This document shows positions 3,922 through 57,962 of a DNA stretch of 64,000 nt, piece by piece. Below the pieces are notes generated by a model. That model saw nothing but the letters and a program-made list of their open reading frames with translations, searched no databases and was not told the origin of the DNA. The translations under genes were made by a program, and so were the position numbers. Position 1 is the first letter of the stretch; each line of letters opens with the position of its first letter. Source of the DNA: Verrucomicrobiota bacterium (lineage in GTDB: Bacteria; Verrucomicrobiota; Verrucomicrobiia; Limisphaerales; MWDV01); the NCBI GenBank assembly GCA_035411585.1, contig DAONTI010000010.1:47370-111369 (forward strand), read 5' to 3'.

Positions 3922-4288
3922 GGCAATAAATCTGATATTGACGGTTTTCACGGTTTCACATGTCTGACGCCAACAGATCGTGCGGAGTCAAAGGCGCGCC
4001 AAACGCTCATGTGACGGCAGAAAACACCAAACTGAATGTATCTTCCAACGCAGGAGTGGCCTAGAAGTAAATTTTAGAGAATGACAAAAGGAAGCACAAC
4101 GGGAACCTTTACTACTCAAAAAATCGTCCGATACCACGAGGTTGGAAAGACAGAACACGGATTAGTTTCGAGCAGTAAGGTGACATTGCACGACCACGCT
4201 CTGCTCGTCTGATACTACTGCTCACCGTCGCCACCCTTGTTATCTCGTCCTTCAACCTGTGCAGAAGCTCCGTCGAACTTGGGCGCAA

Positions 4289-7741: not shown

Positions 7742-9772
7742 TTATTCCTGAAGCCGGAAGAATCGTGCGGCACCGGTGACGGGAAGCGAAACGACTTTTC
7801 GTTCCCCCACTACGACCGGCGTTTCCGCGACTGGCTGCCACTCCGGTGTGTTGAGATCCGCCGTGGCCTTGAGTTGCCCCGCCGCGCTTGCCGGCCAGGA
7901 GATTTCGAGATTGCCCTCTTTCAAGGTGGCTTCCAAAGCAACGGCCGGGACGTAGGGCGCGGCGGTGATCGTAACCATGTCCATCCACATGGTCCCACTG
8001 GAGCCGCCATAGCTATAATCCGAATCCCGGGCCACGTAGGCATCCACCCCCGCTCCGGTGGCGGTCCTCTCAAATTCGCTCACTATCCGGAAGCCAAAGT
8101 TGGGATTGTTATCCACTCCCGGTAAACCGGCAAAATCGGCGGAAAACAGCAACCACCCATCCCAGGCATTCGAGCACACCACGTGATCCGTCCAAACGCT
8201 TCCGTTGGTCGTGTATTGAATCCGCCAAAACCGGCTGGCGGATACGTTGTTGTTATGTTCCCAGATCACCACGGGCTGTTGATAACCCACGGTGCTAAAC
8301 TGGTATTGCACGCCGCTGGTTTTGTTGTCGGCGTCCACGGCGGGATAATTACCGGTGCGCAGCGCGCTTTGGTCGGCCTTGTTTGGATCCGAATTGGCGC
8401 TGGCTTGGAACCGGTAAGTGGTGCTGCTGCCAATAATTTGGGCTTCGCCGGTGCCGATGCTGGGGAACAGGGTGCCAGTGCTTCCATCATTGTCCGGTAC
8501 GGGACTGTTAAAATCCCAGAAGGCGGCGATTTCGGAACGCTCCGCCCGGATCATGAACGTGGTTTCGCTCTCCAGTTCGCCATCACTCGCCACCACGGCC
8601 AGCCGGCCAATGCCCCCGCTGGTGGGGGTCAAATGCAAAGTTCGGTTCGCGCCGGTCCCCGTGAAGGTGGCGTCAAAGGTGAGAAAATTCGGCTGGACCG
8701 GCCGTACGCTGACCGAGATTCCTTCGGGGGCGGATTCGAGATCGCCGACCGTGAAGTTGAGGTCTGCCGTCGCGCCCGGGGGGAGGGTTTGGTCGGCGAA
8801 GGCGGAGATGGTCGGCGGGGTGTTGAGCGGCAGGATGTTCACGAGAAACATGCGCTCGGTGTAGCGACCGCCACCGTCGGTGACCCGCACGATAATGCGC
8901 GACGTCCCAAGGGCCCCGGTGGGTACCACAGTCACGGTGCGGCTGCTCCCGCTGCCGCCAAACGTGAGATCCTGGATGAGATTCGGATTGGAAAATTCCC
9001 CGGATACGTACAAATCCCCCGCGGGTGTTTCCGCATCGCCCACGGTGAACGAAATCGGCGGCAGCGAACTGCCGGCGCGCACGATTTGGTCGGGAATCGG
9101 TGAGATGCTGGGCCGGGTGTTGGCTGGATTCACGGGGTTGCCACTGACCGTGACCATGTCACTCCAGAACGTGCCGGCGGTGGCGTAATTGGCCGTGATG
9201 CCGACGTAGCGCTGGTTATCCCCCTCGCCGATGGCGGTGGCTTCAAATTCCGCCACGATCCGCACGCTAAAGTTGGGATTGTTGTCGGCCTCCGGCAAGC
9301 CGGCCAGGTCCACCGTGTGAAAATACCAGACGCTGGGGGTTAGATTAGTCAGGACAATGTAATCGGCCCAGGCGCTGCCATCCGCCGTGTACTGGATGCG
9401 CAAATACCGGCTCGGGGTCGAGTTGTTGTTGTGCTCCCAGCTCAAGGAAATGTCTTCATAGCCCGCCGTGCTGAACTGCAACTCCAGTCCGCTGGTCTTG
9501 TTGTGCTCGGTGGCGGGCGGGAACGAACTGATGCGCAGACAACTGTTGTCGAAGATCCACGGATCGGAACTGGTGCTGTTTTGGAACCGGTAGGCAATGG
9601 TGGGACCAATGACGTTGGCCATGCCGGTGCCGATCTTGGGCTGGAGCGTCCCGGTGGCGCCGTCGTTGTCCGGCTCGCCCTGGGTGTTGTAATCCCAAAA
9701 GGCCACTGTATCCGCCCGCAAAGCGCCGGCGGTGAGGATGAGGATCGCGAGGAAGTGCAATGCAATTTTCAT
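7742..9772 (-). CDS. secreted protein: duplicated uncharacterised ~185-aa domain flanking two Ig/cadherin-like domains, C-terminal FFRL domain
   Basis: 676 aa with signal peptide MKIALHFLAILILTAGALRA. Domain copies start at AFWDYNTQGEPDNDGATGTLQPKIGTG and AFWDFNSPVPDNDGSTGTLFPSIGTG, and both contain WEHNNN, R(I)QYT and NNPNF. Between them lie two Ig-like repeats (..ISFTVGDAETPAGDL.. / ..LNFTVGDLESAPEGI..). The protein ends ..GAARFFRLQE. Confidence 0.8.
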   Translation of the reverse strand: MKIALHFLAILILTAGALRADTVAFWDYNTQGEPDNDGATGTLQPKIGTGMANVIGPTIAYRFQNSTSSDPWIFDNSCLRISSFPPATEHNKTSGLELQFSTAGYEDISLSWEHNNNSTPSRYLRIQYTADGSAWADYIVLTNLTPSVWYFHTVDLAGLPEADNNPNFSVRIVAEFEATAIGEGDNQRYVGITANYATAGTFWSDMVTVSGNPVNPANTRPSISPIPDQIVRAGSSLPPISFTVGDAETPAGDLYVSGEFSNPNLIQDLTFGGSGSSRTVTVVPTGALGTSRIIVRVTDGGGRYTERMFLVNILPLNTPPTISAFADQTLPPGATADLNFTVGDLESAPEGISVSVRPVQPNFLTFDATFTGTGANRTLHLTPTSGGIGRLAVVASDGELESETTFMIRAERSEIAAFWDFNSPVPDNDGSTGTLFPSIGTGEAQIIGSSTTYRFQASANSDPNKADQSALRTGNYPAVDADNKTSGVQYQFSTVGYQQPVVIWEHNNNVSASRFWRIQYTTNGSVWTDHVVCSNAWDGWLLFSADFAGLPGVDNNPNFGFRIVSEFERTATGAGVDAYVARDSDYSYGGSSGTMWMDMVTITAAPYVPAVALEATLKEGNLEISWPASAAGQLKATADLNTPEWQPVAETPVVVGERKVVSLPVTGAARFFRLQE

Positions 9773-9811: not shown

Positions 9812-10570
9812 TTAAGGCGCGACGTCGAGCCCAAATTTGAACACGTTATTCCATCGTTTTTGGGCCACCCATTCGGCGTGTCCGTCGCAAAAATTCATGT
9901 TCGCCCCGGCCGCGCCGTGGTTGTCTTCCGGCGAATCCGGGTAGTCGTTCAAATCCGTCGGTCCGTTGGCATCATCCCCGTCCAACATCAATAAGATTCC
10001 CGCGGGGCCGGGCTTTTCTCCGATCCGCGGCGTGTAGTGGGTGATGACGTAGCCCGCCACCGAGGCTTCGGTTTTCTTAATGCCCCGGATGTTGCCGGAA
10101 ACCTCGTAGCTGTGTCCTTCGTCCCCGCGTTTCTTGGCGATGAACACCAAGTGGCGGGGAACCATGGTCAGATCCGGCTTGTACACCAGGTTGCTGGGAT
10201 TGATGGTATGGCGTGCGCTAGGGCAGATGAAGCTGCGCACAGTGGACACGTAAGTCGGCCACAGCCAAGTCATATCGTCATCGGTGGAATCCCGATCCGT
10301 GGTGGTGCTGTTGACGGGCAAGCGCCAAGTGGGTGCGGTGTAATGGCCGCGGAAGTCGTGGGCGTACATTTGGCTGCCCAAACCCAGTTGCTTGAGATTA
10401 TTCAAACAGGACGTGCGGTTCGCCCGCTCCTTGGCTTTGCCCAGTGCCGGTAAAAGCATGGCTGCCAGGATGGCAATAATGGCGATGACCACCAAGAGCT
10501 CGATCAGAGTGAACGCCAAATTCCGCCGCCAGCCGCCGCTGCGGCCAGGGCCTGTGTGTCGCTGCGCCAT
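9812..10570 (-). CDS. prepilin-type N-terminal cleavage/methylation domain protein (pseudopilin-like, H-X9-DG-type family)
   Basis: [46 protein letters not shown] is the class III signal/pseudopilin N-terminus. The C-terminal [19 protein letters not shown] resembles the H-X9-DG tail, with one extra residue. It is a close paralog of 23848..24657. Confidence 0.9.
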
Positions 10571-10597: not shown

Positions 10598-11530
10598 CTA
10601 TTGGCTCCGTTGCCGCCGCCACCAGAGTAATCCGCCCAGCATCGAAAGCCCGAACAAGAAACCGGACGCCGGCTCGGGTACCGGAGCAACCGAGGCAAAG
10701 GAGGTGCCGATCCGGATTTCATCAAAATCGGTGGAGTACCGCCCCCTGACGCCCACTTGATCCCAGATCGAGTATTGCATCGTTCCTGAGAAGACCGGAG
10801 TGGACAGCGCGCTTTCATCGGTCAGATCGAGGGGATTCAGCCAGACGGAAACTCCGGTCTGCCCATCCACAGCGTCGGGAAACTCCAGTTTCATCACGAA
10901 AAAGGTCTGCAAATCCATCTTGGCGTCGTCGCCAAAATCCGCCGAAGTCACGGGCGCATTTTGCATTTGAATCCCCCAGTTGCCGGTGGTGTTCGGGGTT
11001 ACTTTCCCCAGCCAAAGCGGGTTGCTGGTCCCGCTGTTTTCCAACTCAACAAAGGCGTACCGCGGGCTGGCCGTGGCAATTCCATCGGATTGAGCTAGGA
11101 AACTGACCCAAATGGTGCTGCCCAGTTCACCAATGGGCTCCGACAACAGCCGCTGGTCCCAGGAATTATTGCCGAACGCCGTCCGAATTTGACTGCCTGA
11201 CGTTTGCAAGGTATGGCCAAATCCATCCGTGTACACCAGTGGCGCCACCCGACTACCCGCCGGATAATCGTCGGGATAAACCGGAATACCCGCGTTCTTG
11301 GACCCCCGTGAAGTCCACGCCCCGGCCCAACCGATGCCGCCCGCCAAACCGGCAATGCCTTCGCCCAGCACACTGTCGGAGGCGTACCATTGCACCCGGC
11401 CGTAATCGAACGGTTCATACGCGATCAACTCGGCCGCCGCGCGATCCACCGCCAAGGCCAGGCAGGGCAGGACGGCGAGTAAGAGGCGATACTTGCAGAA
11501 GTAATTTGTGTGGATTTTCATGAGTATCAA
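10598..11530 (-). CDS. PEP-CTERM sorting-domain protein with LamG-like jelly-roll N-domain
   Basis: Has a signal peptide. The N-domain begins LIAYEPFDY..GIGWAGAWT and ends VWLNPLDL...DFDEIRIGTSFASV. The C-terminus VPEPASGFLFGLSMLGGLLWWRRQRSQ has the three parts of a PEP-CTERM signal: PEP motif, TM helix and basic tail. Confidence 0.85.
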   Translation of the reverse strand: MILMKIHTNYFCKYRLLLAVLPCLALAVDRAAAELIAYEPFDYGRVQWYASDSVLGEGIAGLAGGIGWAGAWTSRGSKNAGIPVYPDDYPAGSRVAPLVYTDGFGHTLQTSGSQIRTAFGNNSWDQRLLSEPIGELGSTIWVSFLAQSDGIATASPRYAFVELENSGTSNPLWLGKVTPNTTGNWGIQMQNAPVTSADFGDDAKMDLQTFFVMKLEFPDAVDGQTGVSVWLNPLDLTDESALSTPVFSGTMQYSIWDQVGVRGRYSTDFDEIRIGTSFASVAPVPEPASGFLFGLSMLGGLLWWRRQRSQ

Positions 11531-11844
11531 CTGGGTAAATTCATTAAAACCTTGCCCACCCTAAGCGCATAATTTTTCGGCGTCAAGACAGTCAGTTTGA
11601 AAATTGAAAAATTTTTCCGAATTGTCACCTGCCCACCCTCGTCCCATCATTTGGTTGAAATGAGATGTGACCACTCGCCGCATGCCGGCTCTTTTGCTTT
11701 TCATCGTTGCCCCACTTCGGTTAACTGCTTGGAAATTTTGCGCGGGCGCATCGTCGGCAATCCGTGGCGCCGGGGGTACCGGAATCATTGAAGGCGGTCG
11801 GCAGTTTCAAAAGCGTTTTGCGGTTTAAGGAACTCAAGGATTGT

Positions 11845-13752: not shown

Positions 13753-15728
13753 ATCCCACTTTCAGGTCCGGTCCGATCATCAGGGCCCGGTTCATCTTGT
13801 TGTGTTTGGTGCTGGCCGCCATCCCGGGTCTGGCGCAGTTGCTGATTTATGAAGACTTCAATTACGAGCGCCGGCAGGGGTTTGTCAGCGCCGCCATTCC
13901 GGGCGAGGGCATAGATGGATTAAATGGCGGGGTGGGTTTCGCCGGTCCGTGGACCACCACCGGAAATTACTTTTCCGGCATCCCAGTTGGTCCCGGAGAT
14001 TACGGTGCGGGGGTCACTTACGGAAATCCGCTTGGCGCGCGCCTGGCCCCGCTGGCCTACAGTGACGGATTCGGCAACCATCTGGTCACCCGGGGACACC
14101 AACTGCGCACGGCCTTCGGCAACCATTCGCGCGAAGTCCGGCGCCTGGCGTCCCCTGTGGGCGGATGCGGAAACACGCTGTGGATGAGTTTTCTGGCGCA
14201 AGCCCACGGGCTGGCCGGCACCTCACGCTACGCCTTCGTGGAACTCGCCAACGCCGACGGCAACGCCATCCGTCTCGGCAACGTCACCCCCGTCTCCTCC
14301 GGGCAATGGGGAGTGCAGGTGTTGAACAGTGGCGGTGGTGCGCCATCGGCCGACTTGGGATTGCCCATGGACGTCCCGACCTTGTTCCTGGCCCGGTTGG
14401 CATATCCGCCAACGCCTGGCGATCCCGCCCGGCTCGCGGTTTGGCTCAACCCGCACAATCTGGTTCATGAAAAGGCGCTGCCCGCGCCGATCATTGAATG
14501 GGATTTTGCACCGGTCGCCTTTGACCAGTTGAGCGTGGCTGGGCGTTACTCCACAGATTTCGATGAGTTGCGTCTCGGCACCCGCTTTGACGCAGTGACG
14601 CCAACGCAACCCGCGCCGGTCGGCGATGCCTGCCTGACCACCGAACGCGACGGTCAGAATCTCCGGCTCAGTTGGCCCGAAGCCTACACCGATGGGTTGG
14701 TGCCACAGGTCTCCCTCGATTTGCAGGAATGGCAGCCGCTGCCCTTGCCGCTAGAGCGCACCAACGGCCAATGGCGGCTGACCGTGCCTCTCGATGGCCA
14801 GCAGCGGTTTTTCCGATTGCATTATCCCGCGCCGGGACCGTCGCGACCGCGGCTCGCCACCCTCGAAGCCACCGGCTGGCAGCCGCAGGAGGTCCGCGCC
14901 GGACTCGTGTATTACGAACGGCAGTTGACCAATTTGTTGGGCAGTCCACAGGTGGTGAACGTGCTGGCGCTCGACCTCGACCACCCCGGCTTGCGTCTCG
15001 AACTGACCGCGATGGATGTCTGGGGGCTTTCCCGCGTTACCGTGCCGGTGCTGGCCGAACATGCCGGCGCGGTCGCGGCTATCAACGGCGGGTTCGGCAC
15101 CGCCCGCACGTTTTCCGAAGTGGGTTACGGCATCATGATTTTTCGCGGGATTGTCTGGCCTTTCGTCAACGATCCCGATTTCCACGAACTCTACGAAGCG
15201 CATGGGCGCAATGCCGTGGGAATTGACGCCGCCGGGGAGTGGCACTTTGCCTCGCGCGGCGCGGAAGGTTGGGAAGTGGGCGCGCGTTGGCCGACGAACT
15301 GGCCGGGCATGGTGCAGGCCATGGCGGGCGGCAGCCAATTGGTGCGGGCCGGTGCGGTCCATCCGTTGGTGGTGCCGGCCACGACGCGCGGGGCGTACCT
15401 CTCGCACAGTGGTTTGCATGACTTGACCTTCAATCGAAATCCGCGTACCGCCATCGGCATCACCAATCATCGGATCGCGGTGCTGGTGACGGTGGCCGGC
15501 CGTTTTCCGGGCATTGCGGAGGGCATGACCTTGCAGGAGATGGCGGAATTGATGTTGTTCATGGGCTGCCGCGACGCCCTCGAACTCGACGGTGGGGGAT
15601 CCTCCACCATGTGGATCGGCCAGCCGCCTTTCGACGGAGTGGTGAATTACCCGACTGACAACGGCCAGTTTGATCACGATGGCCTGCGTTCCCTGCGCTT
15701 GGCCGTCTTAATCATGGAGACGGATTAA
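13749..15728 (+). CDS. fusion protein: LamG-like N-domain (paralog of 10598..11530) + internal FFRL beta-sandwich + phosphodiester glycosidase domain (paralog of 11845..12828)
   Basis: The start ATG at 13749 overlaps the EEP stop (ATGA). Signal peptide MNPTFRSGPIIRARFILLCLVLAAIPGLAQ. The N-domain LIYEDFNYE..GVGFAGPWT..AVWLNPHNL..DFDELRLGTRFDAV aligns along its length with the PEP-CTERM protein. The middle contains ..LRLSWPEAY..QQRFFRLHYP. The C-terminal part has AINGGFG, MAGGSQLVRAG and PRTAIGITNHRIAVLVTVAGR..ALELDGGGSSTMWI. Confidence 0.85.
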   Translation: MNPTFRSGPIIRARFILLCLVLAAIPGLAQLLIYEDFNYERRQGFVSAAIPGEGIDGLNGGVGFAGPWTTTGNYFSGIPVGPGDYGAGVTYGNPLGARLAPLAYSDGFGNHLVTRGHQLRTAFGNHSREVRRLASPVGGCGNTLWMSFLAQAHGLAGTSRYAFVELANADGNAIRLGNVTPVSSGQWGVQVLNSGGGAPSADLGLPMDVPTLFLARLAYPPTPGDPARLAVWLNPHNLVHEKALPAPIIEWDFAPVAFDQLSVAGRYSTDFDELRLGTRFDAVTPTQPAPVGDACLTTERDGQNLRLSWPEAYTDGLVPQVSLDLQEWQPLPLPLERTNGQWRLTVPLDGQQRFFRLHYPAPGPSRPRLATLEATGWQPQEVRAGLVYYERQLTNLLGSPQVVNVLALDLDHPGLRLELTAMDVWGLSRVTVPVLAEHAGAVAAINGGFGTARTFSEVGYGIMIFRGIVWPFVNDPDFHELYEAHGRNAVGIDAAGEWHFASRGAEGWEVGARWPTNWPGMVQAMAGGSQLVRAGAVHPLVVPATTRGAYLSHSGLHDLTFNRNPRTAIGITNHRIAVLVTVAGRFPGIAEGMTLQEMAELMLFMGCRDALELDGGGSSTMWIGQPPFDGVVNYPTDNGQFDHDGLRSLRLAVLIMETD

Positions 15729-23616: not shown

Positions 23617-23847
23617 ACCCCGGACCGCCGGCCCAGGAAAGTATCCAATCACCCGGCAAGCTAGGCATTGCTTGATGAATAAATATGCGGCATGTTGCCC
23701 TTGACGGAAAACGATTTTCCGGGCAGGATGGGCCGCGAACATGAACAAATTTTTTGTCCGTGAACAACCAAAACACAGTGTAACCAGCACGTAATCACAT
23801 CGTTGAATCCGATCTTCCAGACACAACCGCAACCATACTCATACCAC

Positions 23848-24657
23848 ATGACCTGTTCTCCCTACTTACGTCGGCGCCGGTCGGCGTTCACCTTGATTGA
23901 ATTACTAGTGGTCATTGCGATTATTGCCATCCTGGCGGCCATGCTGTTGCCCGCCTTGGCCAAGGCCAAGGAAAAGGCCAAACGGCTGGGTTGCTTGAAC
24001 AACTGCAAACAACTCGGCTTGGGCAGCCTGTTGTACGCGGCGGACAATGAGGGGCATCTGGCCGGCCACACGTGGAATTGGAATTCCGGGTATTATAATA
24101 CCGCCTTGGGACAGATCAGGAGCGGTCTAAGTGACCGGGACGGGCGGGACGATGACATGAACTGGCTGTGGCCGACCTATGTGAAGAATGGCGTGGGCGG
24201 CGCGGGGCAGAGCAGTTATGTCTGTCCGGCCACGCGGAATGCGGTATCCACCAACCTCATACGGGATACGGTGGCCGGAGTGGATAAATTGCAACAACTC
24301 TGTGACAATGCCCGGACGCCCAAGGACACCCGGGGCCATAGTTATGAGTGTTTCGGGAATCTGACCGGCTCCCGGAAAAAGACCGAGCAAGCGGTGGCCG
24401 GCTGGACGATCATCAACTACAGGCAGGCGCTGGGCATCAAGCCGGGGGCCTCGCAGATTTTCCTGATCACCGACGCGGATGATGTCCCGGAGCCCGGCAT
24501 CGGCGACAACGAGAATTATCCGGATCCAATGGACAACCACGGTGCGCTCGGCCAGAATGTGGTGTTTTGTGACGGCCATGCCGAATTTGTGAAGCAGAAC
24601 CGCTGGCTCCACGTTTGGAACCTTTCCCACGACTCCAACCATACCAAGGGCGATTAA
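23848..24657 (+). CDS. prepilin-type N-terminal cleavage/methylation domain protein (pseudopilin-like)
   Basis: [52 protein letters not shown]. Shares [26 protein letters not shown] and [19 protein letters not shown] with 9812..10570. The ORF is open from 23803. Confidence 0.9.
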
Positions 24658-27700: not shown

Positions 27701-28887
27701 ACGGCAGCCCGATGTACCGGATGTTGATTCCGTGGACGGCGGAATGGGAAAGCTGGGGCTCCTTGGGGGATGGGGTGCAGTTGGATGACTCCGAGGCGCG
27801 CAGCACTTGGGATTCCGCCATTGGCGTTCCCAATCTCACCGGTTCGACTGGCACCGGCCGCAAATCCGTTGCGGTGACGGCCGACGTGCAAGCTTGGGCG
27901 AACGGCGAAGACAACTACGGCTGGTACCTGCCTGGCTGGGATCCTTCCGGCTGGAGCGGAAACTGGGACTTCTGGGCGATTGCCCCGTCCCAGCATGAGG
28001 ACATCACCCGGCGGCCTTCGCTGCTGGTGAAGTGGGTACCGGAAGGCACGTTGGCAACCAGCTTCCGCTACGGTGTCAACGATTACACGGCCACCTACGA
28101 CAGCCGGGTCCGGAGTGGGCGTTATGCCGATGAAGACGGATCTACAGCGATCGCGCTCTTCCCGGATTGGGAAATCAACACCGAGGCCGATGACCGGGAT
28201 ATCGGCTTGATCCGGTTCGAGGAGATCATTGGTGAGGAAGCCGATCAGGTGCCGCCGGGGGCGACGATTCACTCGGCGCAGTTGGACATCGCCGCCTTCC
28301 AGTCGAACTCGCCGGGCAACGGGTTCTATCTGCATTACATGCTCCAGCCGTGGAATGACACGGATACGTGGAACATGCTGGGCGATGGCGTGCAAGCCGA
28401 CGGCGTGAAGGCGGCGGTCACGCCGACCGCAATCCTGCGGGACTTCAGCACCGCCATTATACCTTACGTGCCGGGTGGGTATCACTCGCTGGAGGTGAGG
28501 CCGGATGTGCAGGCCTGGGCCTACAAACAACGGCCGAACTATGGTTGGGTCGTTCTGCCGTTCGAGTTCGGACGGGATGGATTCGGCTTCGGAACGGCGG
28601 AACACACTGATGTGGAACGGCGGCCGCAACTGCGGGTGTTCTACTCGCCGGGCGAAATTCCCGAGCCGGAAGACATCACGTTGACCCTGCCGGTGTGGAG
28701 CCCGTCGCAAGTGGTGGTCGGCTTCAACGCCAAGGCCAACACCACCTACACGGTACAACGGGTGGGGCAACTGGGTGATGCCTGGCAAACCATTGGCCAG
28801 GCGATGACCGACGGCGATGGCCACGGGAATTACGAAGACAAGTCGCCCTTGGCGGGTGCGGCGTTCTATCGCGTCGTATTGCCGTAA
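24715..28887 (+). CDS. giant secreted protein (1390 aa): novel N-domain + 3 Calx-beta-like repeats + 2 DNRLRE-like modules + C-terminal FYRV domain
   Basis: Has a signal peptide. The N-terminal roughly 380 aa are paralogous to those of 29205..32288 and 41889..45296 (HHGVAA..., AWFPYP, DPVAFVFIPKTN, WEIQSRDTPGMGLQTP, CTFVFIPAP). Three ~110-aa repeats follow (GITVTPTNNLVTSEDGGTAQFTV...). The protein ends AAFYRVVLP. Confidence 0.9.
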   Translation: MKNTKNTLLTRLRRGARLSSGLLRVPAVLTAVAMALTLLWPAATQAARVHHGVAAANLQVDQIYYPDENGQWPDPLTNENTNALVTTLLSINDFRAITSDWYTNAVDEFGVPTSWHQWWNRADYQIQIGPTRGDDITGGVMMAAVAQNGRNNYGVTRYPVCAVHDGWRICTFANNHDDPLIKAGDGYEYNVNVAGAWFPYPDYIGALVRNSERKNGQTNDMLIGHSSLVLGQHFYWWANGRFIVDLRDLGFDSRTDGVMITTHGKDEQNFALSQINTTNGTWTLYTKDMSQPTYGNFEQDPVAFVFIPKTNTMLISGMFNGDGSIVIHSGDTPQFTVRPKSDVGAGRWELKIPGHSPASGVLIISACAGGTLNTDNIVSYEPDGDGWEIQSRDTPGMGLQTPKGNLGEPEPVCTFVFIPAPTPGITVTPTNNLVTSEDGGTAQFTVELDFKPTADVTIGVSSSNPAEGVVDVTSLTFTPNNWNIPQVVTITGQDDAVADGQVAYTIVLAKAVSADPQYHDMKPADVAVLNADNEAGITVSKNWLVTTEAGGTDSFTVVLNTAPTADVTIGLASSDVGEGTVFPASLVFTPDNWNIPQTVTVTGVDDVVDDGDAPYAIVFAAAVSADAAYNGVKGADVPALNLDNDEAGIIVTPQELTVSETGTTANFTVVLGTRPTADVVISYVSGDPTEGVVTPASRTFTPDNWNTPQTFTVTGVDDAENDGDITYNLQGSVTSSDAVYAAMIPAPILVTTLDDEAELALPSGPVQYGIGTTGIGLDGWATLTDSVANYNGGNLTVVVTNNGSADDRLTLRNEGVEEGQVGVSGANVTYSGIPVGTLAGGEGLTPLVVTFNNAVTPAVAQALVRAVTFSNVAEEPSLADRTVTVIVNRGAGSSAAEKLVHVGLVRVTHFQEGADHGYGVYTGAQNNNLWALNEGTAYPEGSHADGLAIGFAGVQMLDRAILLRFDDIIGEGPGQIPPNATIVYAEFQFFVSNNGDGSPMYRMLIPWTAEWESWGSLGDGVQLDDSEARSTWDSAIGVPNLTGSTGTGRKSVAVTADVQAWANGEDNYGWYLPGWDPSGWSGNWDFWAIAPSQHEDITRRPSLLVKWVPEGTLATSFRYGVNDYTATYDSRVRSGRYADEDGSTAIALFPDWEINTEADDRDIGLIRFEEIIGEEADQVPPGATIHSAQLDIAAFQSNSPGNGFYLHYMLQPWNDTDTWNMLGDGVQADGVKAAVTPTAILRDFSTAIIPYVPGGYHSLEVRPDVQAWAYKQRPNYGWVVLPFEFGRDGFGFGTAEHTDVERRPQLRVFYSPGEIPEPEDITLTLPVWSPSQVVVGFNAKANTTYTVQRVGQLGDAWQTIGQAMTDGDGHGNYEDKSPLAGAAFYRVVLP
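25984..26985 (+). repeat. three tandem coding repeats (336+336+330 nt) of a Calx-beta-like adhesin module
   Basis: The repeats start at 25984 (GITVTPTNN), 26320 (GITVSKNWL) and 26656 (GIIVTPQEL). Each contains TADVTIG/TADVVIS, (L/R)TFTP(N/D)NWN(I/T)PQ.(V/F)T(I/V)TG.DD and a ..Y.. acidic end. Confidence 0.85.
27421..28655 (+). repeat. two tandem ~205-aa coding modules resembling DNRLRE-type carbohydrate-binding/accessory domains
   Basis: Matched motif pairs: LLRFDDIIGEGPGQIPPNATI / LIRFEEIIGEEADQVPPGATI; YRMLIPWTAEWESWGSLGDGVQ / HYMLQPWNDTDTWNMLGDGVQ; ADVQAWANGEDNYGW / PDVQAWAYKQRPNYGW; RRPSLLVKW / RRPQLRVFY. Confidence 0.7.
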
Positions 28888-28951: not shown

Positions 28952-29204
28952 CCTTCTCGGGAAGCGAGGCGTCCGGCCTCGGGCGCCTCACAGAATCGCG
29001 AACCGTAGGGCGGTTGGTTCGCGTCTCCACTCATGACCGACCGGCGATTCTCGCTCCCCCGCACCGGGCTGTGCGCCAAAGCGCAAAGGAGCGGGCGTTG
29101 GATTCAAAAAGGCCCCTTGGGGCGGTTGGGCTGGAGGGTTCCCGTCGGCCCGGATTGAATGAGGGGCGATGAAGGACGGGTGATGTTTGCTTCGGTTCTT
29201 CCAG

Positions 29205-32200
29205 ATGACAGATATGCAAAAAGTTGATTTGAGTTGCCGGCGCTTGGGCAGTCGGTGCGCAGGTAGATTTCCGCATTTTTGGGGTTGGATGATCCTGGCC
29301 GCTTTGGCGGTGGGAGGTATCCCGTCCGCCGCCCAGGCGGGGCACGGCGTGGCTGCCGGGCATTTGCGCGTTATTCAGTTGGACGTGGGCGACACCACCA
29401 ATTCGGTGCGCGTCATTCCCACCCTGCGGATCAATGATTTTCGGCTGCGCGACGGCTCGAACCGCGGCGATTACCCGGTGCAGATCGGCCTGGCGGCGGC
29501 GGACGATGTGGCGACCGGAGTCTTGATTTCTTCCGTGGCCGAGAATGGGCGCTACAACTTTGGCACGAACAATTTTCCCATCAGCGCGGTTCACGTGGGG
29601 GCGACGGATTATCGGATTTCCACGTTTGTGCGGACAGCGGCGGTCGCCGATGCGGGGGCGGAGTATAACGTCAACGTGGCGGCGGCGTGGTTTCCCTACG
29701 ACCGCTTTTGGGGCGGCACCGCCCGCAACGCCTCCGGGTTGGATGGCGGTACCAACAATTTACTGGTCGCCTCGCCGGGATTGGTTTTGGGCCACCATTT
29801 CAAAGGGGTGGCCGCCGGGCGGTCGGTGGTGGATTTGCGGAGCTTCGGCATTGACGCGCGCACGGACGGCGTGTTGCTCGTCAATGGCGGCAAGGACGAG
29901 AACAACTTCGCGCTGTCGCAGGTCAACACCAACGACGGCACCTGGAACGTGTTCGTCAAAGATAACGCGACGCCGACGGCGAGCCAGTATGAACAGGATC
30001 CGGTGGCGTTCGTGTTCATTCCCAAGACCAACACGGCGTTGATTTCCGGGCGGTTCAACGGGGATGGCAGCATTGCCCTGTTCAGCGGCGCGGCGCCGGC
30101 GTTTACGGTCAGCAACCTGGCCGCGGGCCGCTGGGACCTCCGGATTCCCGGCCATTCCCCCCGGGCGGGCATTTTGATTATTTCCGCCGAGGGGGGCGGG
30201 CATTACAACCTGGATAACATCGTCAGTTATCAAATCAACGAGGCGGGCAACGGCTGGGAAATCCAATCCCGGGACACGCCCAACAACGGCTTGCAGACGC
30301 CCGTGGGATCGGGTGGGGAACCGGAGGCGGTTTGCTCGTTTGTCTTTATTCCCGCGGCGGCGCCGTTGTTGGTGTCGCCGGCCAATGGCGCGCCGAATCA
30401 GGCGTTGCCCCAGTTGCAAACGGTGCTGTTCAACGCGGCGCCGGGGGACCTGACCGTGACGGTTTACGGCGGCGAAGCGGCCACGCCGCCGGCCGGGCCG
30501 GACTTCACGGTGGTCGTGCTGCCGGATTCGCAAAACTACACGGATGAACGCAACGGCGCGAAGAAAGAGATGTGGTTTGCCCAGTGCGAATGGATTATCA
30601 CCAACCGGCTCTCCCGCAACATCGCTTACGTCGCCCACCTGGGGGACATCAGCCAGACGGGCGACGTCAAAGGTGGTCGCCCCAATCTCGCCGAATGGCG
30701 CAATGCGACCAACGCAATGTATCGCCTGGAAAACCGGGTGCGGACCGAACTGGCCGAAGGCGTCCCCTATGGCCTGGCGGTGGGTAATCATGATCAGACC
30801 CCGCGCGGAGATCCCTTGGGGACCACGATTTTCTACAACCAATACTTTGGCATCTCCCATTTTCTGGGGCGCACCTATTACGGCGGATATTACGGCACGA
30901 ACAACAACAATCATTATGATTTGTTCAGCGCCAGCGGCTTGGATTTCATTGTGTTGTATTTCGAATACGACATGGACGCCAACCCGGCGGTGCTGGCCTG
31001 GGGCAACGAGGTCCTGCAGGCCTATGCCGACCGGCAGGCCATTGTGGTCACGCACTACATGGGCAGCGCCACGACCCCCAGCACCTTCAGCGCGCAGGGG
31101 GCCGCCATTTACAATACGCTCAAAGGCAATCCGAATCTGGCCTTGTTGCTCGGCGGCCACGTTGCTGGTCCGGGAGGCATCGGTGAAGGTTCCCGCGAGG
31201 ATCATTACGGCGGCAACACTGTTCGCACATTGATCTCGAATTATCAATTCCGCACCAACGGCGGCAACGGCATGTTGCGGCTCATGGAATTTTCGCCCAG
31301 CAACAACACGGTGGTCGTGCAGACCTATTCGCCCTGGTCGGATGAATACGAAACCGACGAGGACAGCGAGTTCTTTTTCACGCGCAACCTGCAGCCGCCG
31401 GGCGGCACGGGTTCCCCCGGCACACCGTTCACCGTGTTGACGACGCAAACAGGAGTGGCGCCCGGCAGCCTGGTGAATCTGACTTGGCCGGGGTTGCGGC
31501 CCGATCGCACCTATCAATGGTATGTCACCGTCACCGATGCAGCGGGGAATACGACCGTGGGGGAAACCTGGCGTTTTACCACCGTGCCCAACTCCCCGCC
31601 ACGGGCCAGCAACCAACTGGTGACCATTGAAGGCGACGCGCCGGCCCCCCTGACGTTGCGCGGATCGGATCCCAACGGCGACGCCATCACTTTTGGTTTG
31701 TTCGCACCGCCCTCCCAAGGGGCGATCACCGAGTTGAATACCAACGCCGGGACTTTGACTTACTATCCCGTCCGGGGCTACCGGGGCCCTGACCGGTTTA
31801 CCTACCGGGCGTATGACGGGCGCACCAACAGCAGCATCGCCACGTTCAACCTCATCATCACCGCGCCGGCGGATACCAACGCCAATGGCTTGCCGGATGC
31901 CTGGGAGGCCGCGTACGGCATCACCGATCCGGACGCCGATGACGATCGCGACGGGCACTCTAATCGCGACGAATACCGGGCCAACACCAATCCCACCAAC
32001 GCCGCTTCGGCTTTGCGGATTACCGGGATGACCCGGCAACCCGACGGACATTTTGACTTTGCGTGGGCGTCCGTGGGCGGCACCCGGTACCGGGTGCAGT
32101 TCACCGATGCGCCTGACCCCGCGGGGCTGGCGGGTGGATTCACTGATGTCGTTCGGGCCCTGACCAACGAGATGGATTTGGGGCCGTACGGAATCATGAG

Positions 32201-32288
32201 CACCCAAAGGTTTACGGATGATTTCACCCTGACCGGGGGCGCGCCCACGAATCAAAGCCGGTATTACCGGGTCCGGGTGGTGCCGTGA
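29205..32288 (+). CDS. giant secreted metallophosphoesterase: novel N-domain + calcineurin-like phosphoesterase + cadherin/Ig-like + TSP3-like Ca-binding segment + C-terminal YYRV domain
   Basis: The N-domain is paralogous to the other two giants. MPE motifs: VVVLPDSQ, HLGDIS, VGNHDQ, VVTHY, LGGHVAG. The acidic segment reads NGLPDAWEAAYGITDPDADDDRDGHSNRDEYRANTNP. The protein ends SRYYRVRVVP. ATG 29205 was chosen; TTG 29187 and ATG 29289 are alternatives. Confidence 0.9.
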   Translation: MTDMQKVDLSCRRLGSRCAGRFPHFWGWMILAALAVGGIPSAAQAGHGVAAGHLRVIQLDVGDTTNSVRVIPTLRINDFRLRDGSNRGDYPVQIGLAAADDVATGVLISSVAENGRYNFGTNNFPISAVHVGATDYRISTFVRTAAVADAGAEYNVNVAAAWFPYDRFWGGTARNASGLDGGTNNLLVASPGLVLGHHFKGVAAGRSVVDLRSFGIDARTDGVLLVNGGKDENNFALSQVNTNDGTWNVFVKDNATPTASQYEQDPVAFVFIPKTNTALISGRFNGDGSIALFSGAAPAFTVSNLAAGRWDLRIPGHSPRAGILIISAEGGGHYNLDNIVSYQINEAGNGWEIQSRDTPNNGLQTPVGSGGEPEAVCSFVFIPAAAPLLVSPANGAPNQALPQLQTVLFNAAPGDLTVTVYGGEAATPPAGPDFTVVVLPDSQNYTDERNGAKKEMWFAQCEWIITNRLSRNIAYVAHLGDISQTGDVKGGRPNLAEWRNATNAMYRLENRVRTELAEGVPYGLAVGNHDQTPRGDPLGTTIFYNQYFGISHFLGRTYYGGYYGTNNNNHYDLFSASGLDFIVLYFEYDMDANPAVLAWGNEVLQAYADRQAIVVTHYMGSATTPSTFSAQGAAIYNTLKGNPNLALLLGGHVAGPGGIGEGSREDHYGGNTVRTLISNYQFRTNGGNGMLRLMEFSPSNNTVVVQTYSPWSDEYETDEDSEFFFTRNLQPPGGTGSPGTPFTVLTTQTGVAPGSLVNLTWPGLRPDRTYQWYVTVTDAAGNTTVGETWRFTTVPNSPPRASNQLVTIEGDAPAPLTLRGSDPNGDAITFGLFAPPSQGAITELNTNAGTLTYYPVRGYRGPDRFTYRAYDGRTNSSIATFNLIITAPADTNANGLPDAWEAAYGITDPDADDDRDGHSNRDEYRANTNPTNAASALRITGMTRQPDGHFDFAWASVGGTRYRVQFTDAPDPAGLAGGFTDVVRALTNEMDLGPYGIMSTQRFTDDFTLTGGAPTNQSRYYRVRVVP

Positions 32289-44800: not shown

Positions 44801-45296
44801 CCGCATCACCTATCGGGCGCGCGATGGCCAGGCCTTCAGCGGCATAGCCACGTTGAACCTGAATGTCATCGCGCCGCCGGACGCCAATGGCAACGGCTTG
44901 CCGGACGCCTGGGAATTGTATTACGGCATCACCGATCCCGAGGCTGATGACGATGACGACGGCCTCAGTAATCGTCAGGAGTATTGGGCCCATACCAATC
45001 CCACGAATGCCGCTTCCGCTTTCCGGATTCTTAACGCCGCGTGGCAGCCCAGCGGGCACTTTGCGTTGACCTGGGCCTCCGTGGGCGGCGTGCGGTATCG
45101 GGTGCAATACACCGATGCGACTCATCCGGCCGGTGTGGCCGGGACCTTTACGGACCTGCAACGGGGTATTGAGCTCGAGATGGACGCGGGCCCGGCGGGG
45201 GTGGAGTCCACGCAAACTTTTGCCGATGATTTCACCCACACCGGCGGCCCGCCCGCGCGTGGCGCCCGCTATTATCGCGTGCGGATTGCTCCGTGA
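41889..45296 (+). CDS. giant secreted metallophosphoesterase, paralog of 29205..32288 (with one extra Calx-beta-like repeat)
   Basis: 1135 aa. It has the same N-domain and one Calx-beta-like repeat (GVTVTPTNNLVTRGDGGTATFAV...). MPE motifs: IVALPDTQ, QLGDIV, VGNHEQ, VVTHH, LGGHITG. The acidic segment reads NGLPDAWELYYGITDPEADDDDDGLSNRQEYWAHTNP. It ends ARYYRVRIAP. By eye, well over half of aligned residues are identical to the 29205 protein. Confidence 0.9.
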   Translation: MKCVSSLEQTAAGRAAGFLFFRPGRSRGWLAAMIAAALSFSPQAVAEPVHHGVAAGRLVVSQVPGLDDNTNAVVTLAQSINNFQIGSYNRGDYAVRIGVGMLAAEDSARGVLMASVAENGRNNFGTNGYPTCSMEGNSAGALRISTALGGSGGEYNVNVAGAWFPYDRYLAGWARNANAINGGTNDLLTASPGIVLGTHFRGVASGRSVVDLRSFGVDARQDGVLLVTHGKDEGNFALSQVNPVNGTWNVFVRDNAQATYSKYEQDPVAFVFIPKTNAALISGRFNGDGSIDLFSGVSPRFSVTNIGTGRWLLRMRGYTPAEGVLIISAEGGGSLNGDNVVSYEITPDGEAWEIQSRDTPGMGLQTPVGAAGQPEAVASFVFIPAPTPGVTVTPTNNLVTRGDGGTATFAVVLHSSPATNVHIQLTSSDPALGRPTPATLTFRSTDWHLPQTVTVTGGDALTPGAVPYHILLSPAASGDAAYRGLKPEDVAVVYLPAPVAVITPPPGALNISPSPMLTVVATNPAPEALTVTFYGREVTETFPGPDFCIVALPDTQVYVAEKRGAKKEMFIAQTEWIVTNRIARNIAYVAQLGDIVNDGDIYQGQPNLTQWRNATNAMYRLENPVRTLLTHGIPYGVAVGNHEQQPRGDPTGTTYFYNLFFGLPHFSGRPYHAGHYGTNNNNHFDFFSASGLDFVVLYFEYDQGANPAVLAWGSEVLRTNAHRRAIVVTHHVGNSQTPSSFSLQGSAIYNALKGHTNLFLMLGGHITGQGSRQDIHNGNIVRSLVADYQGWANGGNGFMRIMEFSPSNNLVVVQTYSPWTKEYLTDEHSEFWFDYPMQPAGTGPAGTAFVPLGTNTNVTPGSRTSLAWPSRRPNQNYEWFVTVTDAAQNTWTSRLWRFTTTVTNTPPVLTNRSLTLQGDTPTRLLFQAMDVNQDPLTYHVIVAPTRGLMQDFDPVTGSFLYVPARGFRGMDRITYRARDGQAFSGIATLNLNVIAPPDANGNGLPDAWELYYGITDPEADDDDDGLSNRQEYWAHTNPTNAASAFRILNAAWQPSGHFALTWASVGGVRYRVQYTDATHPAGVAGTFTDLQRGIELEMDAGPAGVESTQTFADDFTHTGGPPARGARYYRVRIAP

Positions 45297-46160: not shown

Positions 46161-48281
46161 TTACGGCGCAGGTGACCAGAACAACCGGAAATAGCGCTGG
46201 CTGTCGGAAGGCGACACTGTATATCCCGTGTTCGACGCTTCCGGCACTTCCGTGAACGGTCCGTTGACGGTCGGCGCGGCCTCCAAGATGAAGACGGGAT
46301 TGCCCCAGCTCAAGGTCAACTGGCCTGCGGCATAGGTCGCAACCAACGCCTCGGCTGCGGGGGTGCTGGGCTCCCACACATCGCTCCATTGCGAGCCGAT
46401 CTTGAGATCGTCCACCCAGAGCGTGGGCGTGCTGGGGCCGTCCGCCTGGCGGAAGCTGTACCAATAAAGCGTGATGGGCGTGGTATTATCAACGGCGGTG
46501 ACGCCGCCGACGGCTTCGGCGGTCGGATTAACCCAGAGAGTGCTTTCCGCCGTATCCACGTTATAGCGGGTCAGCACCAGGTAGGTGGTGTTCAACTCCA
46601 GGTCCTGCGGCACGCCGGCCAGCACGAACCCGCCGTTGGAGATGTGGAACCGGAATTTGCCGGGCGCCGCGCCGTTGGTAGCGGCAAACACCCGCGCGCG
46701 GAAGCCGGTGCCAATATCGCGGTAATGGGCAAAGTAATTGCCGTTGTTTCCGGTCGGCAAAGTGGCCAGGTTCACTTTGAACGCGCTGTAAAGCACGATG
46801 CCGTTGTCCACCGGCTGATAGAAGTTTGAGAAACCCCGGCTGATGTCTTCCGAATCCCCCGCTTTCAGATGCAGCCGGCCTTCCACCACCTGCGTTTGTC
46901 CCGTTGCGCCCGTGCCGGCACTGTGGGTGAACCAGCGGTTGAAGGAATTTTCGATGATGCTGCCGTCGTCGTAGGAGAAATCCTCGTCCAACACGAGGCC
47001 GAACTTGGGATGGAACGTCACCTTGAAACTCGTGGGAATGTCCCAGGTGCCGTCGCTCACGGTCAGGGTGATGGTCGCGGTGCCCGCCATGTCGGGCTGG
47101 GGCGTGATCGTCACCGTGCGGTTGGCGCCGCTGCCCTGGACCTTGATGTTGCTGCTGGGAATGACGGCTTCATTCGAGGAGGTGGGCGTCACCACCAGAC
47201 TGCCCGGCGTTTCGACGTCGGTCACGGTGAAGGCCAGCGGCCCAATGACCGTGTTTGTGGGACCAAACTGGTTGGCCAGCGCGGAAATGGCCGGCTCGCC
47301 CACATAAACCTTGAAGCTGTTGGTCGCGGTTTCATTGTTGCCGTCGGTGACGACCACTTCGATTTGCGCCAGACCCTGCTGGCCGGTGGCGGGAGTGACC
47401 GTGAGCGTGCGGTTTTCGCCCGCGCCGCCAAAGGTGAGATTGGCCGGATTGTTCGGCACCAGGGCGGGATTGTCCGAGGTGGCGGTGACCACCAAATCAC
47501 CGGCGGGCGTCTCGACATCGCTCACCAGGAAAGCCAGCGGCTCGGTGGCGGTGTTCCACGGCAGGTGAACGTCCACCAGACCGGAAATGGACGGCGGACC
47601 GCCAATGGTTTGCACGTCGGCGAACGTCGTGCCGATCCGGAGATCGTCCAAAGTCAGCGTCCCCATCCCATTCCCGCTGGAGAGTGACTGGCGCAGGCAT
47701 ACCGAATGAAGAGGAACGGCTGAGGTGTTATCGTTGGCGTCGGCGCGGTTCGCGCTGCTGGCCTCGGAGGTCGGGTTAATCCACAAAGTGGAGTTGGTGC
47801 CGTTGATGATCCGCACCACCAATTTGACATCCGTATTCAAATCCAGATCCGTGGGGATGACGACCGGCGCATTGCCGCCGTTGGCGATGCCCACGCGGTA
47901 CGTGCTTCCGTTGGGGACCGCGAATACGCGCGCCCGAAACATCGTCGTTCCCGTGTCCCGATAATGCCAAAAATAGCCGCCCGTTCCCACCGGCGGCATG
48001 GAGAAATTCACCACGAAACTGGCAAAAAGGACCCCTTCGCCGGAGTACGGTCCGCCGGGCAGCCCCGCACTGACATCCTCGGCTTCTGACTGGGTGAGAT
48101 TTACCTTGCCCGAGGCAACGTCAACTTGTTCGGGTGCTCCGCTATGGTTGGTCCACACCCCGCCCGAAACTAAAATGAGACTGCCGTCGGGGTAATCAAA
48201 AGGTTCATTCCAGATTAACGCGCCCGGCGCCAGCGAAGCCGCGCCCACCAAGGCCATCAGAGGAAGAAATATGCGTTTCAT
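46161..48281 (-). CDS. secreted protein: two LamG-like jelly-roll domains flanking two Ig/cadherin-like domains, C-terminal YFRL domain
   Basis: 706 aa with signal peptide MKRIFLPLMALVGAASLAPGA. D1 (aa ~21-224) spans LIWNEPFDYPDGS...STLWINPTSEA...LDDLRIGTTFADV. D2 (aa ~428-636) spans LVLDEDFSYDDGS...STLWVNPTAEA...VDDLKIGSQWSDV. Ig-like repeats with FLVSDVETPAGDL / FTVTDVETPGSL lie between them. The protein ends SQRYFRLFWSPAP. Confidence 0.85.
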   Translation of the reverse strand: MKRIFLPLMALVGAASLAPGALIWNEPFDYPDGSLILVSGGVWTNHSGAPEQVDVASGKVNLTQSEAEDVSAGLPGGPYSGEGVLFASFVVNFSMPPVGTGGYFWHYRDTGTTMFRARVFAVPNGSTYRVGIANGGNAPVVIPTDLDLNTDVKLVVRIINGTNSTLWINPTSEASSANRADANDNTSAVPLHSVCLRQSLSSGNGMGTLTLDDLRIGTTFADVQTIGGPPSISGLVDVHLPWNTATEPLAFLVSDVETPAGDLVVTATSDNPALVPNNPANLTFGGAGENRTLTVTPATGQQGLAQIEVVVTDGNNETATNSFKVYVGEPAISALANQFGPTNTVIGPLAFTVTDVETPGSLVVTPTSSNEAVIPSSNIKVQGSGANRTVTITPQPDMAGTATITLTVSDGTWDIPTSFKVTFHPKFGLVLDEDFSYDDGSIIENSFNRWFTHSAGTGATGQTQVVEGRLHLKAGDSEDISRGFSNFYQPVDNGIVLYSAFKVNLATLPTGNNGNYFAHYRDIGTGFRARVFAATNGAAPGKFRFHISNGGFVLAGVPQDLELNTTYLVLTRYNVDTAESTLWVNPTAEAVGGVTAVDNTTPITLYWYSFRQADGPSTPTLWVDDLKIGSQWSDVWEPSTPAAEALVATYAAGQLTLSWGNPVFILEAAPTVNGPFTEVPEASNTGYTVSPSDSQRYFRLFWSPAP

Positions 48282-48434: not shown

Positions 48435-49259
48435 TCAGTTGGGCGTGTTTGCGGTGGGATACCAATACATCCGCCGCTCAATGGCCCATTCCGTGCTGGC
48501 GCTGTTGGATTCCGCCGTCGTGCGCAGGAAATCGTTGGTGCGCGCCACGCGGCCGCTGCCGTCGGCCATGGCGAAGTTGCCGCGCAGATCGTGCCGCGCC
48601 ACGGCGTACTGGCCGGTGACATTGGATTGGGCGGGCGAGGCGTTCTGCGGGGAATTCGGGTCCACTTCCGCCACGAGGACGGTGTCCACCGGTTTCTGGA
48701 TGTTGACGAACTTGGTATTGCTGATGCCCAAAGTGGCACGGGTCGAGCGGTTGATGCAAAGCCGGCCATTCTCGCCGTACATGAACACCGCCCGGCTGAA
48801 ATTGGGCGGATTGGGGTAGGGCATCGCCGCGCGGTTGAGATCCGGCGTGCTGGGACAGGAGAACACGCTGCGCGTGGTGGGCACCGGCGGTTCGGGCGGC
48901 GTGCGCATGTACAAATCTTTGAGACGGGGCTGGCTGATATAAGAGGCCACGGTGTTGTACCAGGCTTCCTCATTTTGGGGGTCAATGATCGGCACCACCG
49001 TGTTGCCTTCCTCGGGGACAAAATCGTTGTGGTCATCGGCATACATGCGAAACCCGAGCGACCATTGCCGCATGTTACTAAGGCAACTGGTGGCCTGGGC
49101 TTTGCTCTTGGCCTTGGACAACGCGGGGAGCAGCATCGCGGCCAGGATGGCGATGATCGCAATGACCACGAGCAATTCAATCAGCGTAAACGCCCGCCCC
49201 GGGCGGGAATAACGCGTCGGCATACAGCGGACGAGTGGCATAGTCGAACTTGTTTGCAT
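48435..49259 (-). CDS. prepilin-type N-terminal cleavage/methylation domain protein with canonical H-X9-DG tail
   Basis: [46 protein letters not shown], and C-terminal [16 protein letters not shown] (H, nine residues, DG). The start is one of ATG 49259/49241/49223; the listed ORF is open to 49520. Confidence 0.9.
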
Positions 49260-49582
49260 TTCCCGGTGCGCATCGCCGCGTCCCGGCAACGTCACCAAAG
49301 TCGTCCGTAGCATAGGGGAGGCGTCCACCCAAAGCAAGCGGCGCGGGTTGTCGTAAGCCAGACGGACGGTCACCGACGAAAGGTTGGGCCGGGAAGCCGC
49401 ATTTGGCGGCTCCAGACGGGGCAAATGCCGGCTGCGCAGCCGCGGCTTGACTTGTCGGTGGGGGCAACTCTTAATGCTCCCGCGCGCGGCGGGTTGGATT
49501 GCGTTTGGTCCCGTCGCCACCCAGTGATGAAGCGAATTTGCATTGAAACATCAGCTCTCCCCATCCCGGGCCGCTCACTGCC

Positions 49583-52018: not shown

Positions 52019-52038
52019 TCCTCACGTCAACCACCTTT

Positions 52039-53916: not shown

Positions 53917-53930
53917 CAAGGAGACCGAAC

Positions 53931-56576: not shown

Positions 56577-56585
56577 CCGTTATTC

Positions 56586-57896: not shown

Positions 57897-57962
57897 CGCG
57901 TTGACCGGACGATTGTTGCTCCACAAAACCCCGTTCCTCCTCGGCGTCGAGACACTCCTTCC

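Follow-up and report, generated by a model that had tools for sequence, protein, structure and literature searches.

A C-terminal domain related to fibronectin type III recurs on secreted proteins of Verrucomicrobiota and may act as a localization tag

Seven copies of a domain in a verrucomicrobial locus

This work concerns a 64 kb stretch of verrucomicrobial DNA (contig DAONTI010000010.1; the whole stretch is hereafter called the window) and a small domain, here called the tail, that recurs at or near the C-termini of proteins encoded in it. The genes of the window were translated and the motif [FY][FY]R[LVI] was sought in six-frame open reading frames (ORFs) of at least 100 amino acids. It occurs eight times. 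Six instances lie 2-6 residues ahead of the stop codon in large proteins, designated A, B, D, E, F and G; one is internal to protein C, at around residue 398 of 697; and one falls in a frame that is not that of a gene.

The gene products of the window were scored with an independent hidden Markov model (HMM) made from 117 tails of other organisms and containing zero window sequences. The copy at the focus of this report, that of protein D (gene 24715-28887), occupies positions 28657..28884 on the forward strand and ends ..AAFYRVVLP immediately before the stop codon. It matches the HMM with an e-value of 2e-8 and an envelope covering residues 1334-1409 of the 1409-residue ORF; hmmsearch was used with the --max option, as the default filters miss the D tail within so long an ORF. 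The highest-scoring copies are those of protein B (tail 7745..7963, reverse strand; gene 7742-9772; terminus ..ARFFRLQE; 1e-20) and protein C (tail 14592..14831, forward strand; gene 13662-15728; 1e-16), the latter reading ..QRFFRLHYP and being followed by a NAGPA phosphodiester glycosidase domain at residues 469-668. The LamG-containing protein A (gene 4289-7078; tail 4292..4525, reverse strand) ends ..ETYYRIATQ, with three residues between motif and stop, and is matched to its last residue at 7e-10. Protein G (gene 46161-48281; tail 46164..46373, reverse strand) ends ..QRYFRLFWSPAP and scores 1e-6. A longer variant, of about 92 residues rather than the usual 65-75, is found in proteins E (gene 29187-32288; tail 32010..32285, forward strand; terminus ..SRYYRVRVVP; 0.03) and F (gene 41889-45296; tail 45018..45293, forward strand; terminus ..ARYYRVRIAP; 0.08). 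All remaining window proteins score 1.1 or worse.

Pairwise BLAST comparison of 100-residue tails links B, C and G (e-values from 7e-9 to 1e-3, with B against C at 7e-9 and B against G at 3e-5) and, separately, E and F, whose tails are 64% identical; A and D are paired at only 0.08. The E/F type has an insertion of around 20 residues relative to the compact tails, to which it is nonetheless aligned by hhalign from strand B through the terminal motif, at 94% probability and an e-value of 1e-7. That BLAST clearly joins only the B-C-G and E-F groups might suggest that a short motif has simply recurred by chance in β-rich C-termini, without common origin. This explanation can, for practical purposes, be dismissed: it is refuted by the separation of the seven from every other window protein with the independent HMM, by the hhalign connection of the E/F type to the compact type, and by the position of the bare motif in a larger sample. 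In the latter, which comprises all six-frame ORFs of the window and 79 other loci of 20 kb (1.3 Mb altogether), 127 of 157 motif instances lie within eight residues of a stop codon, compared with 3.3 expected under uniform placement, around 80 of these being search seeds.

Since the independent HMM distinguishes the seven proteins and hhalign unites the E/F type with the others, we infer that the window holds exactly seven copies of one homologous domain family. This agrees with an earlier assessment of the same DNA, the original prediction, in which seven segments sharing one domain, six of them ending close to the stop codon, had been proposed: the HMM picks the same seven proteins and no others. 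The range proposed for the focal copy (28672-28884, forward strand) was in frame, while those proposed for B (7745..7940) and F (45020..45293) had the right ends but were out of frame by a base or two, their lengths not being multiples of three, and have been corrected here.

Fold and relationship to fibronectin type III

The AlphaFold2 model of the D tail has a predicted local distance difference test (pLDDT) score of 89 and contains six β strands. The model of the E/F variant is poor (pLDDT 42) and its fold is inferred from the profile alignment alone. When the D tail model is compared with the PDB using Foldseek, only weak and generic matches to fibronectin type III (FN3) or immunoglobulin (Ig)-like domains are obtained, the best being to an FN3-like protein of C. 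thermocellum (e-value 0.03, TM-score 0.63). Profile comparisons are more specific. A profile of 124 diverse tails matches the consensus FN3 design 5j7k with an e-value of 2.4e-4 over its residues 4-71 of 99, an alignment spanning strands A to F and leaving out the FG loop and G strand, and also matches the FN3-like protein 3mpc (6.5e-3). Aligned by hhalign to canonical bacterial FN3 domains from the same loci, the tails match at 89% probability and an e-value of 2e-6 over strands A to C'. Because the profile alignment to FN3 covers strands A to F and excludes G, the tail is, on the evidence of the model and profiles, an FN3-related six-stranded β-sandwich in which the chain stops after the F strand and the G strand is absent.

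Resemblance to FN3 (PF00041, in the E-set/Ig-like clan) extends beyond the A-to-F strand order. The tail has the 'L.LSW' of the B strand, the 'Y.VQ' of the C strand and a Trp in C', and its F strand, [RQ][FY][FY]RL, aligns with the YxFRV of FN3. The differences are equally clear: FG loop and G strand are missing, giving six strands in the model against seven in FN3, the tyrosine-corner position is Arg or Gln, and the tail is nearly always the last domain while canonical FN3 is usually internal. The canonical FN3 domains of the same loci (recognizable by ..YYYVVSA.N.., as in L075 and L058) are indeed internal and keep their G strand.

Despite this relationship, PF00041 and related Pfam fn3 models match none of the 124 tails, even at e-values up to 1, and no fn3 match extends across the tail region in the seven full window proteins. 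More generally, Pfam-A and NCBIfam give no match over the tails of the seven, and at the same threshold the 124 tails produce sporadic matches at most, none of them consistent. Public annotations describe the tail proteins as 'hypothetical protein' or name them for other domains, and we found no description of the tail domain in the literature. The family thus lacks any Pfam-A or NCBIfam model, although structure-based resources may label the region generically as Ig-like. The statement in the original prediction that no known sorting system was tied to the motif is in line with these searches.

Family size and phyletic distribution

An exhaustive profile search of 1.84 billion representative sequences yielded 16,708 matches. 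This number includes LamG-only proteins, because the profile retained the LamG region of one protein, P0012, over 159 positions in all. Word-indexed protein searches with tail alignments returned 16 and 23 short fragments, which are unfit for measuring positional bias. The 79 genomic loci mentioned above were obtained by scanning genomes with the E/F-type tail as seed. Nearly all of them belong to Verrucomicrobiota (Limisphaerales, Pedosphaera, Chthoniobacteraceae, Terrimicrobiaceae and Opitutaceae), with a few from Kiritimatiellia, Pontiella and Victivallales. The tail is a large family of Verrucomicrobiota and their relatives in the Planctomycetes-Verrucomicrobia-Chlamydiae (PVC) group, namely Kiritimatiellia and Lentisphaerota. 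Several Joint Genome Institute metagenomes also contain contigs on which protein B recurs unchanged, flanked by the genes that neighbour it in the window.

Some records stand out by their titles. Typical verrucomicrobial E/F-type tail genes are carried by GTDB records titled Bifidobacterium or Bifidobacteriaceae (L025, L029, L048, L050, L072 and L073), labels that look like mis-assigned bin taxonomy. Such genes are also present in two records titled Akkermansia muciniphila (L010 and L027).

Position in the polypeptide chain

Scanning the 1.3 Mb sample with the tail HMM gave 113 matches, of which 104 end within six residues of a stop codon; 45 of these terminal matches are in flanking genes and were not search seeds. 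Of the nine internal matches, six are weak and fall on canonical FN3 domains and one is to a piece of an E/F tail. Only two are true tails, in protein C and in a locus of Pontiella (L074). Between motif and C-terminus there are 2-4 residues in 236 of 247 cases. The same is seen in the database sample: after rescanning with a tail-only HMM, around 130 of the best 150 proteins of the exhaustive search end within three residues of the tail, typically as ..QFFRLxx. The terminal strand follows the pattern [RQ]-[FY]-[FY]-R-[LVI] and the last residue of the tail is mostly P, Q, K or R. An outer-membrane β-signal, as might be imagined at such a terminus, was considered and rejected, since the last residue is not aromatic.

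The C-terminal bias that had been predicted is thus borne out. As a possible refutation, the original prediction had named a generic Ig/FN3 fold found at any position of the chain; a relationship to FN3 is indeed what the profiles reveal, but the indifference to position is not.

Interchange with PEP-CTERM signals

In one family the tail alternates with a known sorting signal, as had been proposed. The N-terminal domain of protein C has a paralogue in the window (10598..11530, reverse strand), 47% identical over 279 residues to residues 54-328 of C, which bears a PEP-CTERM signal (PF07589) at residues 283-306. Fifteen database homologues of this N-terminal domain fall into two groups. In seven, the sequence ..TF(D/A)SVTP(V/I)PEP.. 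runs directly into a PEP-CTERM signal; in the other eight, a linker of around 15 residues leads to a tail ending ..RQFFRLQ(Q), followed by the stop codon, at a total length of 354-366 residues. The junction, ..GTTFDSVTP, is common to both forms, and the two are found side by side both in the window and in the locus L085. As the unfused homologues stop right after FFRLQ(Q), protein C is best understood as the tail form fused to a NAGPA domain. The fusion, which had been suggested earlier to explain the internal copy, is real, because the same architecture is present in L083 at 58% identity.

The PEP-CTERM/exosortase signal (PF07589, TIGR02595) and the tail therefore share a C-terminal junction, homologous secreted proteins and genomes. 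They are nevertheless very different objects. PEP-CTERM is a segment of around 25 residues made up of Pro-Glu-Pro, a membrane helix and a basic cluster, whereas the tail is a folded soluble domain; all three hallmarks are absent from the tails, and in the window PF07589 matches only at 10598-11530. This interchange, read from sequence comparison, is the strongest argument that the tail may fill the slot of a known sorting signal.

The genes concerned form a recurring set. A PEP-CTERM paralogue, a tail paralogue, a prepilin-type N_methyl gene and NAGPA are found together in the window (10598-11530, reverse strand; 11764-12828 and 13662-15728, forward strand) and in L083 and L085. In the window and L083 the tail paralogue is fused to NAGPA and a separate NAGPA gene adjoins it, while the order in L085 is PEP-CTERM paralogue, tail paralogue, N_methyl gene.

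Carrier proteins

The proteins bearing tails are otherwise unrelated, in keeping with the earlier proposal. In the window they contain LamG (A), cadherin-like Big_9 (E, F and G), DNRLRE (D) and NAGPA (C) domains, together with the phosphatase-like regions mentioned below. Tail proteins in the flanking regions of the other loci include a cyclophilin, a glycoside hydrolase (GH) of family GH26 with a CBM35 carbohydrate-binding module (CBM), a GH10 enzyme, a sulfatase, an Exo_endo_phos protein with LamG, and proteins with InlB B-repeats, Ig domains and LamG arrays. Compact tails are preceded by Pro-rich linkers. The E/F type, in contrast, is always preceded by an Asp-rich motif resembling thrombospondin type 3 (TSP3) repeats, D.DGDG.SN..EY.ANTNPTNAAS (31944-32009 and 44952-45017 in the window), and there is a weak match to TSP3_bac just upstream of the E tail (e-value 0.04, below the Pfam cut-off). 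The same stretch before the E and F tails has a sub-threshold match to the NCBIfam entry 'Amuc_1099 family pilus-like system protein'.

All seven window proteins begin with a basic and then a hydrophobic stretch resembling a signal peptide when read by eye, which accords with the claim that all are secreted, and by a simple heuristic a signal-like hydrophobic N-terminus is present in 95 of 117 full-length representatives. As far as sequences can indicate, the tail's carriers in Verrucomicrobiota and their PVC relatives are Sec-exported and functionally unrelated to one another. It marks only a subset of exported proteins, since other signal-bearing enzymes of the window (GH127, GH2, GH141-like and a sulfatase) lack it.

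The nature of the carriers raises the question of whether the tail is a binding module, CBM-like or protein-docking. Such a module would attach the enzymes and adhesins that carry it to a substrate, to glycan on the surface of the cell itself or to scaffolds. The GH10, GH26-CBM35, sulfatase and LamG carriers lie in polysaccharide-utilization neighbourhoods, the tail has conserved aromatic residues and an Arg, and proteins with tandem tails (see below) could serve as the scaffolds. The tail profile also partially matches CBM32/discoidin domains in a glucanase from Paenibacillus (2rv9/4zxe; e-value 3e-5). That match, however, covers strands A-E only, is to domains of another fold class and seems to reflect a sequence pattern common to both, and no CBM family is matched consistently by the 124 tails in Pfam. 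Furthermore, CBMs are not normally confined to the extreme C-terminus, and the tail is also found on enzymes that do not act on glycans, such as the cyclophilin and phosphatase-like proteins. We consider a binding module unlikely.

Possible function

The tail is a real C-terminal module and a plausible, though unproven, candidate for a part in sorting or anchoring. Our preferred reading, held tentatively, is that it serves as a modular C-terminal localization tag for secretion or surface retention. Cargo exported by the Sec system would reach the periplasm, where the folded tail could be recognized by a partner in the cell envelope, probably through the free edge of its F strand and the nearby C-terminus. 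The partner would then either move the cargo across the outer membrane or retain it at the cell surface. The logic would be that of PEP-CTERM or of the C-terminal domain of type IX secretion systems (T9SS) but the chemistry would differ, the tail having neither a membrane helix nor an obvious cleavage motif.

The comparison with the T9SS domain of Bacteroidota is instructive. Like the tail, it is an Ig-like β-sandwich, of 70-100 residues, at the extreme C-terminus of Sec-exported and functionally unrelated cargo including many glycoside hydrolases; it is lineage-restricted and present in many copies per genome, and in both the last residues are often basic. Unlike it, the tail has six strands rather than seven, exists in tandem and internal copies, is hosted by Verrucomicrobiota and PVC relatives, and has no known partner resembling PorU or PorV. 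We know of no T9SS described in Verrucomicrobiota or the PVC group. Membership of the T9SS family was rejected, as no T9SS sorting-domain model, whether of type A (TIGR04183, PF18962 Por_Secre_tail), B or C, matches any of the 124 tails in Pfam or NCBIfam searches at e-values up to 1. No SprA, PorV or PorU-type component is encoded among the window genes. The use of an FN3-like fold as a C-terminal module may be regarded as analogous to the T9SS domain.

A number of observations weigh against a localization tag. Around 12 of the best 150 database proteins (about 8%) carry 4-10 tandem copies of the tail, each repeat ending FFRV or FYRV followed by a short, often Pro-rich, linker and the last copy being terminal; to our knowledge, sorting domains do not form tandem repeats. 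The tail is stably internal in the conserved fusion of the N-terminal domain of C, tail and NAGPA. In some orthologues of protein D (L034, L036, L041 and L056) the terminus reads FFLL(Q/R)(L/V)(P/Q), the near-invariant Arg being replaced by Leu. The conserved positions of the tail, namely Trp in strand B, an aromatic residue in C, Trp in C' and the [FY][FY]RL of strand F, are mostly ordinary determinants of the FN3 fold, so that nothing marks a dedicated recognition site. Neither a secretin, protease or sortase-like gene among the genes of the window nor a processing enzyme, translocon or anchor for tail proteins, nor any gene for processing or secretion distributed together with the tail, was identified. 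Finally, the largest database sample is biased towards proteins with both LamG and tail, for which the tail-only HMM rescan and the independent genomic sample serve as correction.

Several of these points are what would be expected of a structural FN3-like end-cap or spacer with no role in sorting: a lineage-specific variant without a G strand, distributed over surface and secreted proteins as domains were shuffled, would occupy the last position only because a truncated FN3 is best tolerated at the chain end or before a flexible linker. The likeness to FN3 in profile, hhalign and Foldseek comparisons, the coincidence of conserved tail residues with FN3 core positions, the tandem arrays, the conserved internal copy and the lack of identified machinery all suit such an explanation. 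Yet a passive spacer would not be expected to form the very end of the chain in over 90% of cases, on dozens of architectures unrelated to one another, nor to alternate with PEP-CTERM at a single junction, and the canonical seven-stranded FN3 domains that accompany it in the same proteins are internal and complete. We regard the end-cap as a somewhat unlikely explanation, though a serious one. The sorting or anchoring role put forward in the original prediction is therefore favoured by the C-terminal bias, the unrelated secreted cargo and the alternation with PEP-CTERM, while the FN3 relationship and the tandem and internal copies count against it.

Verrucomicrobiota are major degraders of polysaccharides, but little is understood of how they target the many enzymes and adhesins that they secrete. 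Were the tail an address tag, it would represent a new sorting class beside LPXTG, PEP-CTERM and the T9SS domain, one that is compact, easily recognized and apparently carried by dozens of proteins in each genome. As such it would make the surface and secreted proteome of the phylum predictable and would offer a way to the missing machinery. Should its role be purely structural, a family model would still label thousands of protein ends that are at present blank. The clean swap between PEP-CTERM and tail constitutes a natural experiment on protein localization.

Neighbouring pseudopilin-like genes

The sole lead to machinery comes from neighbouring genes. The window contains only three prepilin-type N_methyl/DUF1559 genes (with an H-X9-DG motif), and each lies immediately upstream of a tail gene and in the same orientation: 9812..10570 (reverse strand; PF07963 and PF07596) precedes B, 23803..24657 (forward strand) precedes D and 48435..49520 (reverse strand) precedes G. 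Over all loci of the 1.3 Mb sample there are 13 such adjacencies, compared with 5.3 +/- 2.1 in within-locus shuffles (P of around 5e-4), gene calls being rough in the loci of lower G+C content. This excess tells less than it seems to, since one conserved order of pilin, D and E genes, seen in L016, L017 and L032, enters the count more than once and these genomes are in any case rich in pseudopilin paralogues. The association is treated here as a lead and not a finding.

There is some context for it in Verruconatronum alginivorum, which is reported to have 67 pulG-like pseudopilin paralogues, one of them within an alginate-induced gene cluster, and in which a pseudopilin was among the genes over-expressed on alginate; the authors suggest type II export of alginases (PMC13274419, 2026). 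One may imagine a PVC-specific pathway for export or display in which the tail marks the cargo. Its free F-strand edge would be gripped or completed by the neighbouring N_methyl/DUF1559 protein, and the hugely expanded pseudopilin families of Verrucomicrobiota would act as substrate-specific adaptors, pushing or holding tail-bearing enzymes at the surface by way of a machine akin to type II secretion or a pilus. This must be considered distinctly improbable at present. If true, it would give a type-II-like system its first cargo signal defined at the sequence level.

An Ig-like fold without its final strand, encoded beside pilin-like genes, also brings to mind the donor-strand-complemented pilins of chaperone-usher and Bacteroidia type V systems. 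This is no more than a resemblance. Neither a strand that would complete the fold nor an usher or chaperone was identified, the tail model is confident without a seventh strand, and the neighbours of tail genes are pseudopilins of type II/IV kind rather than usher-type pilins.

Other features of the window

An N-terminal domain of around 400-450 residues (48-60% identity), without a Pfam or NCBIfam match, is common to proteins D, E and F, and the order of genes D and E is conserved in L016, L017 and L032. Beyond this domain, E and F carry metallophosphatase-like motifs (GD..GD and GNHD/GNHE) that are undetected by Pfam. Proteins A, B, D and G contain internal duplications. Protein D has three units of around 115 residues (50-61% identity) plus two DNRLRE-like units; in B and in G a domain of around 200 residues is present twice (50% and 41% identity, respectively), with Big_9/cadherin-like repeats between the copies; and the two ends of protein A are 29% identical over 193 residues.

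Tail-less genes for glycan degradation occupy positions 2200-3951 and 49583-61612. They encode GH123, GH127 and GH2 enzymes, a GtaA-like six-hairpin protein, pectate-lyase-like and GH141-like β-helix proteins and a sulfatase. Between genes E and F lies a cluster for sugar metabolism, with a Sugar-bind regulator, an Fe-ADH protein and a glycerol-3-phosphate-type FAD oxidoreductase, and within it are two adjoining paralogues of the major facilitator superfamily (37452-38819 and 38844-40223, both on the forward strand), which are 31% identical.

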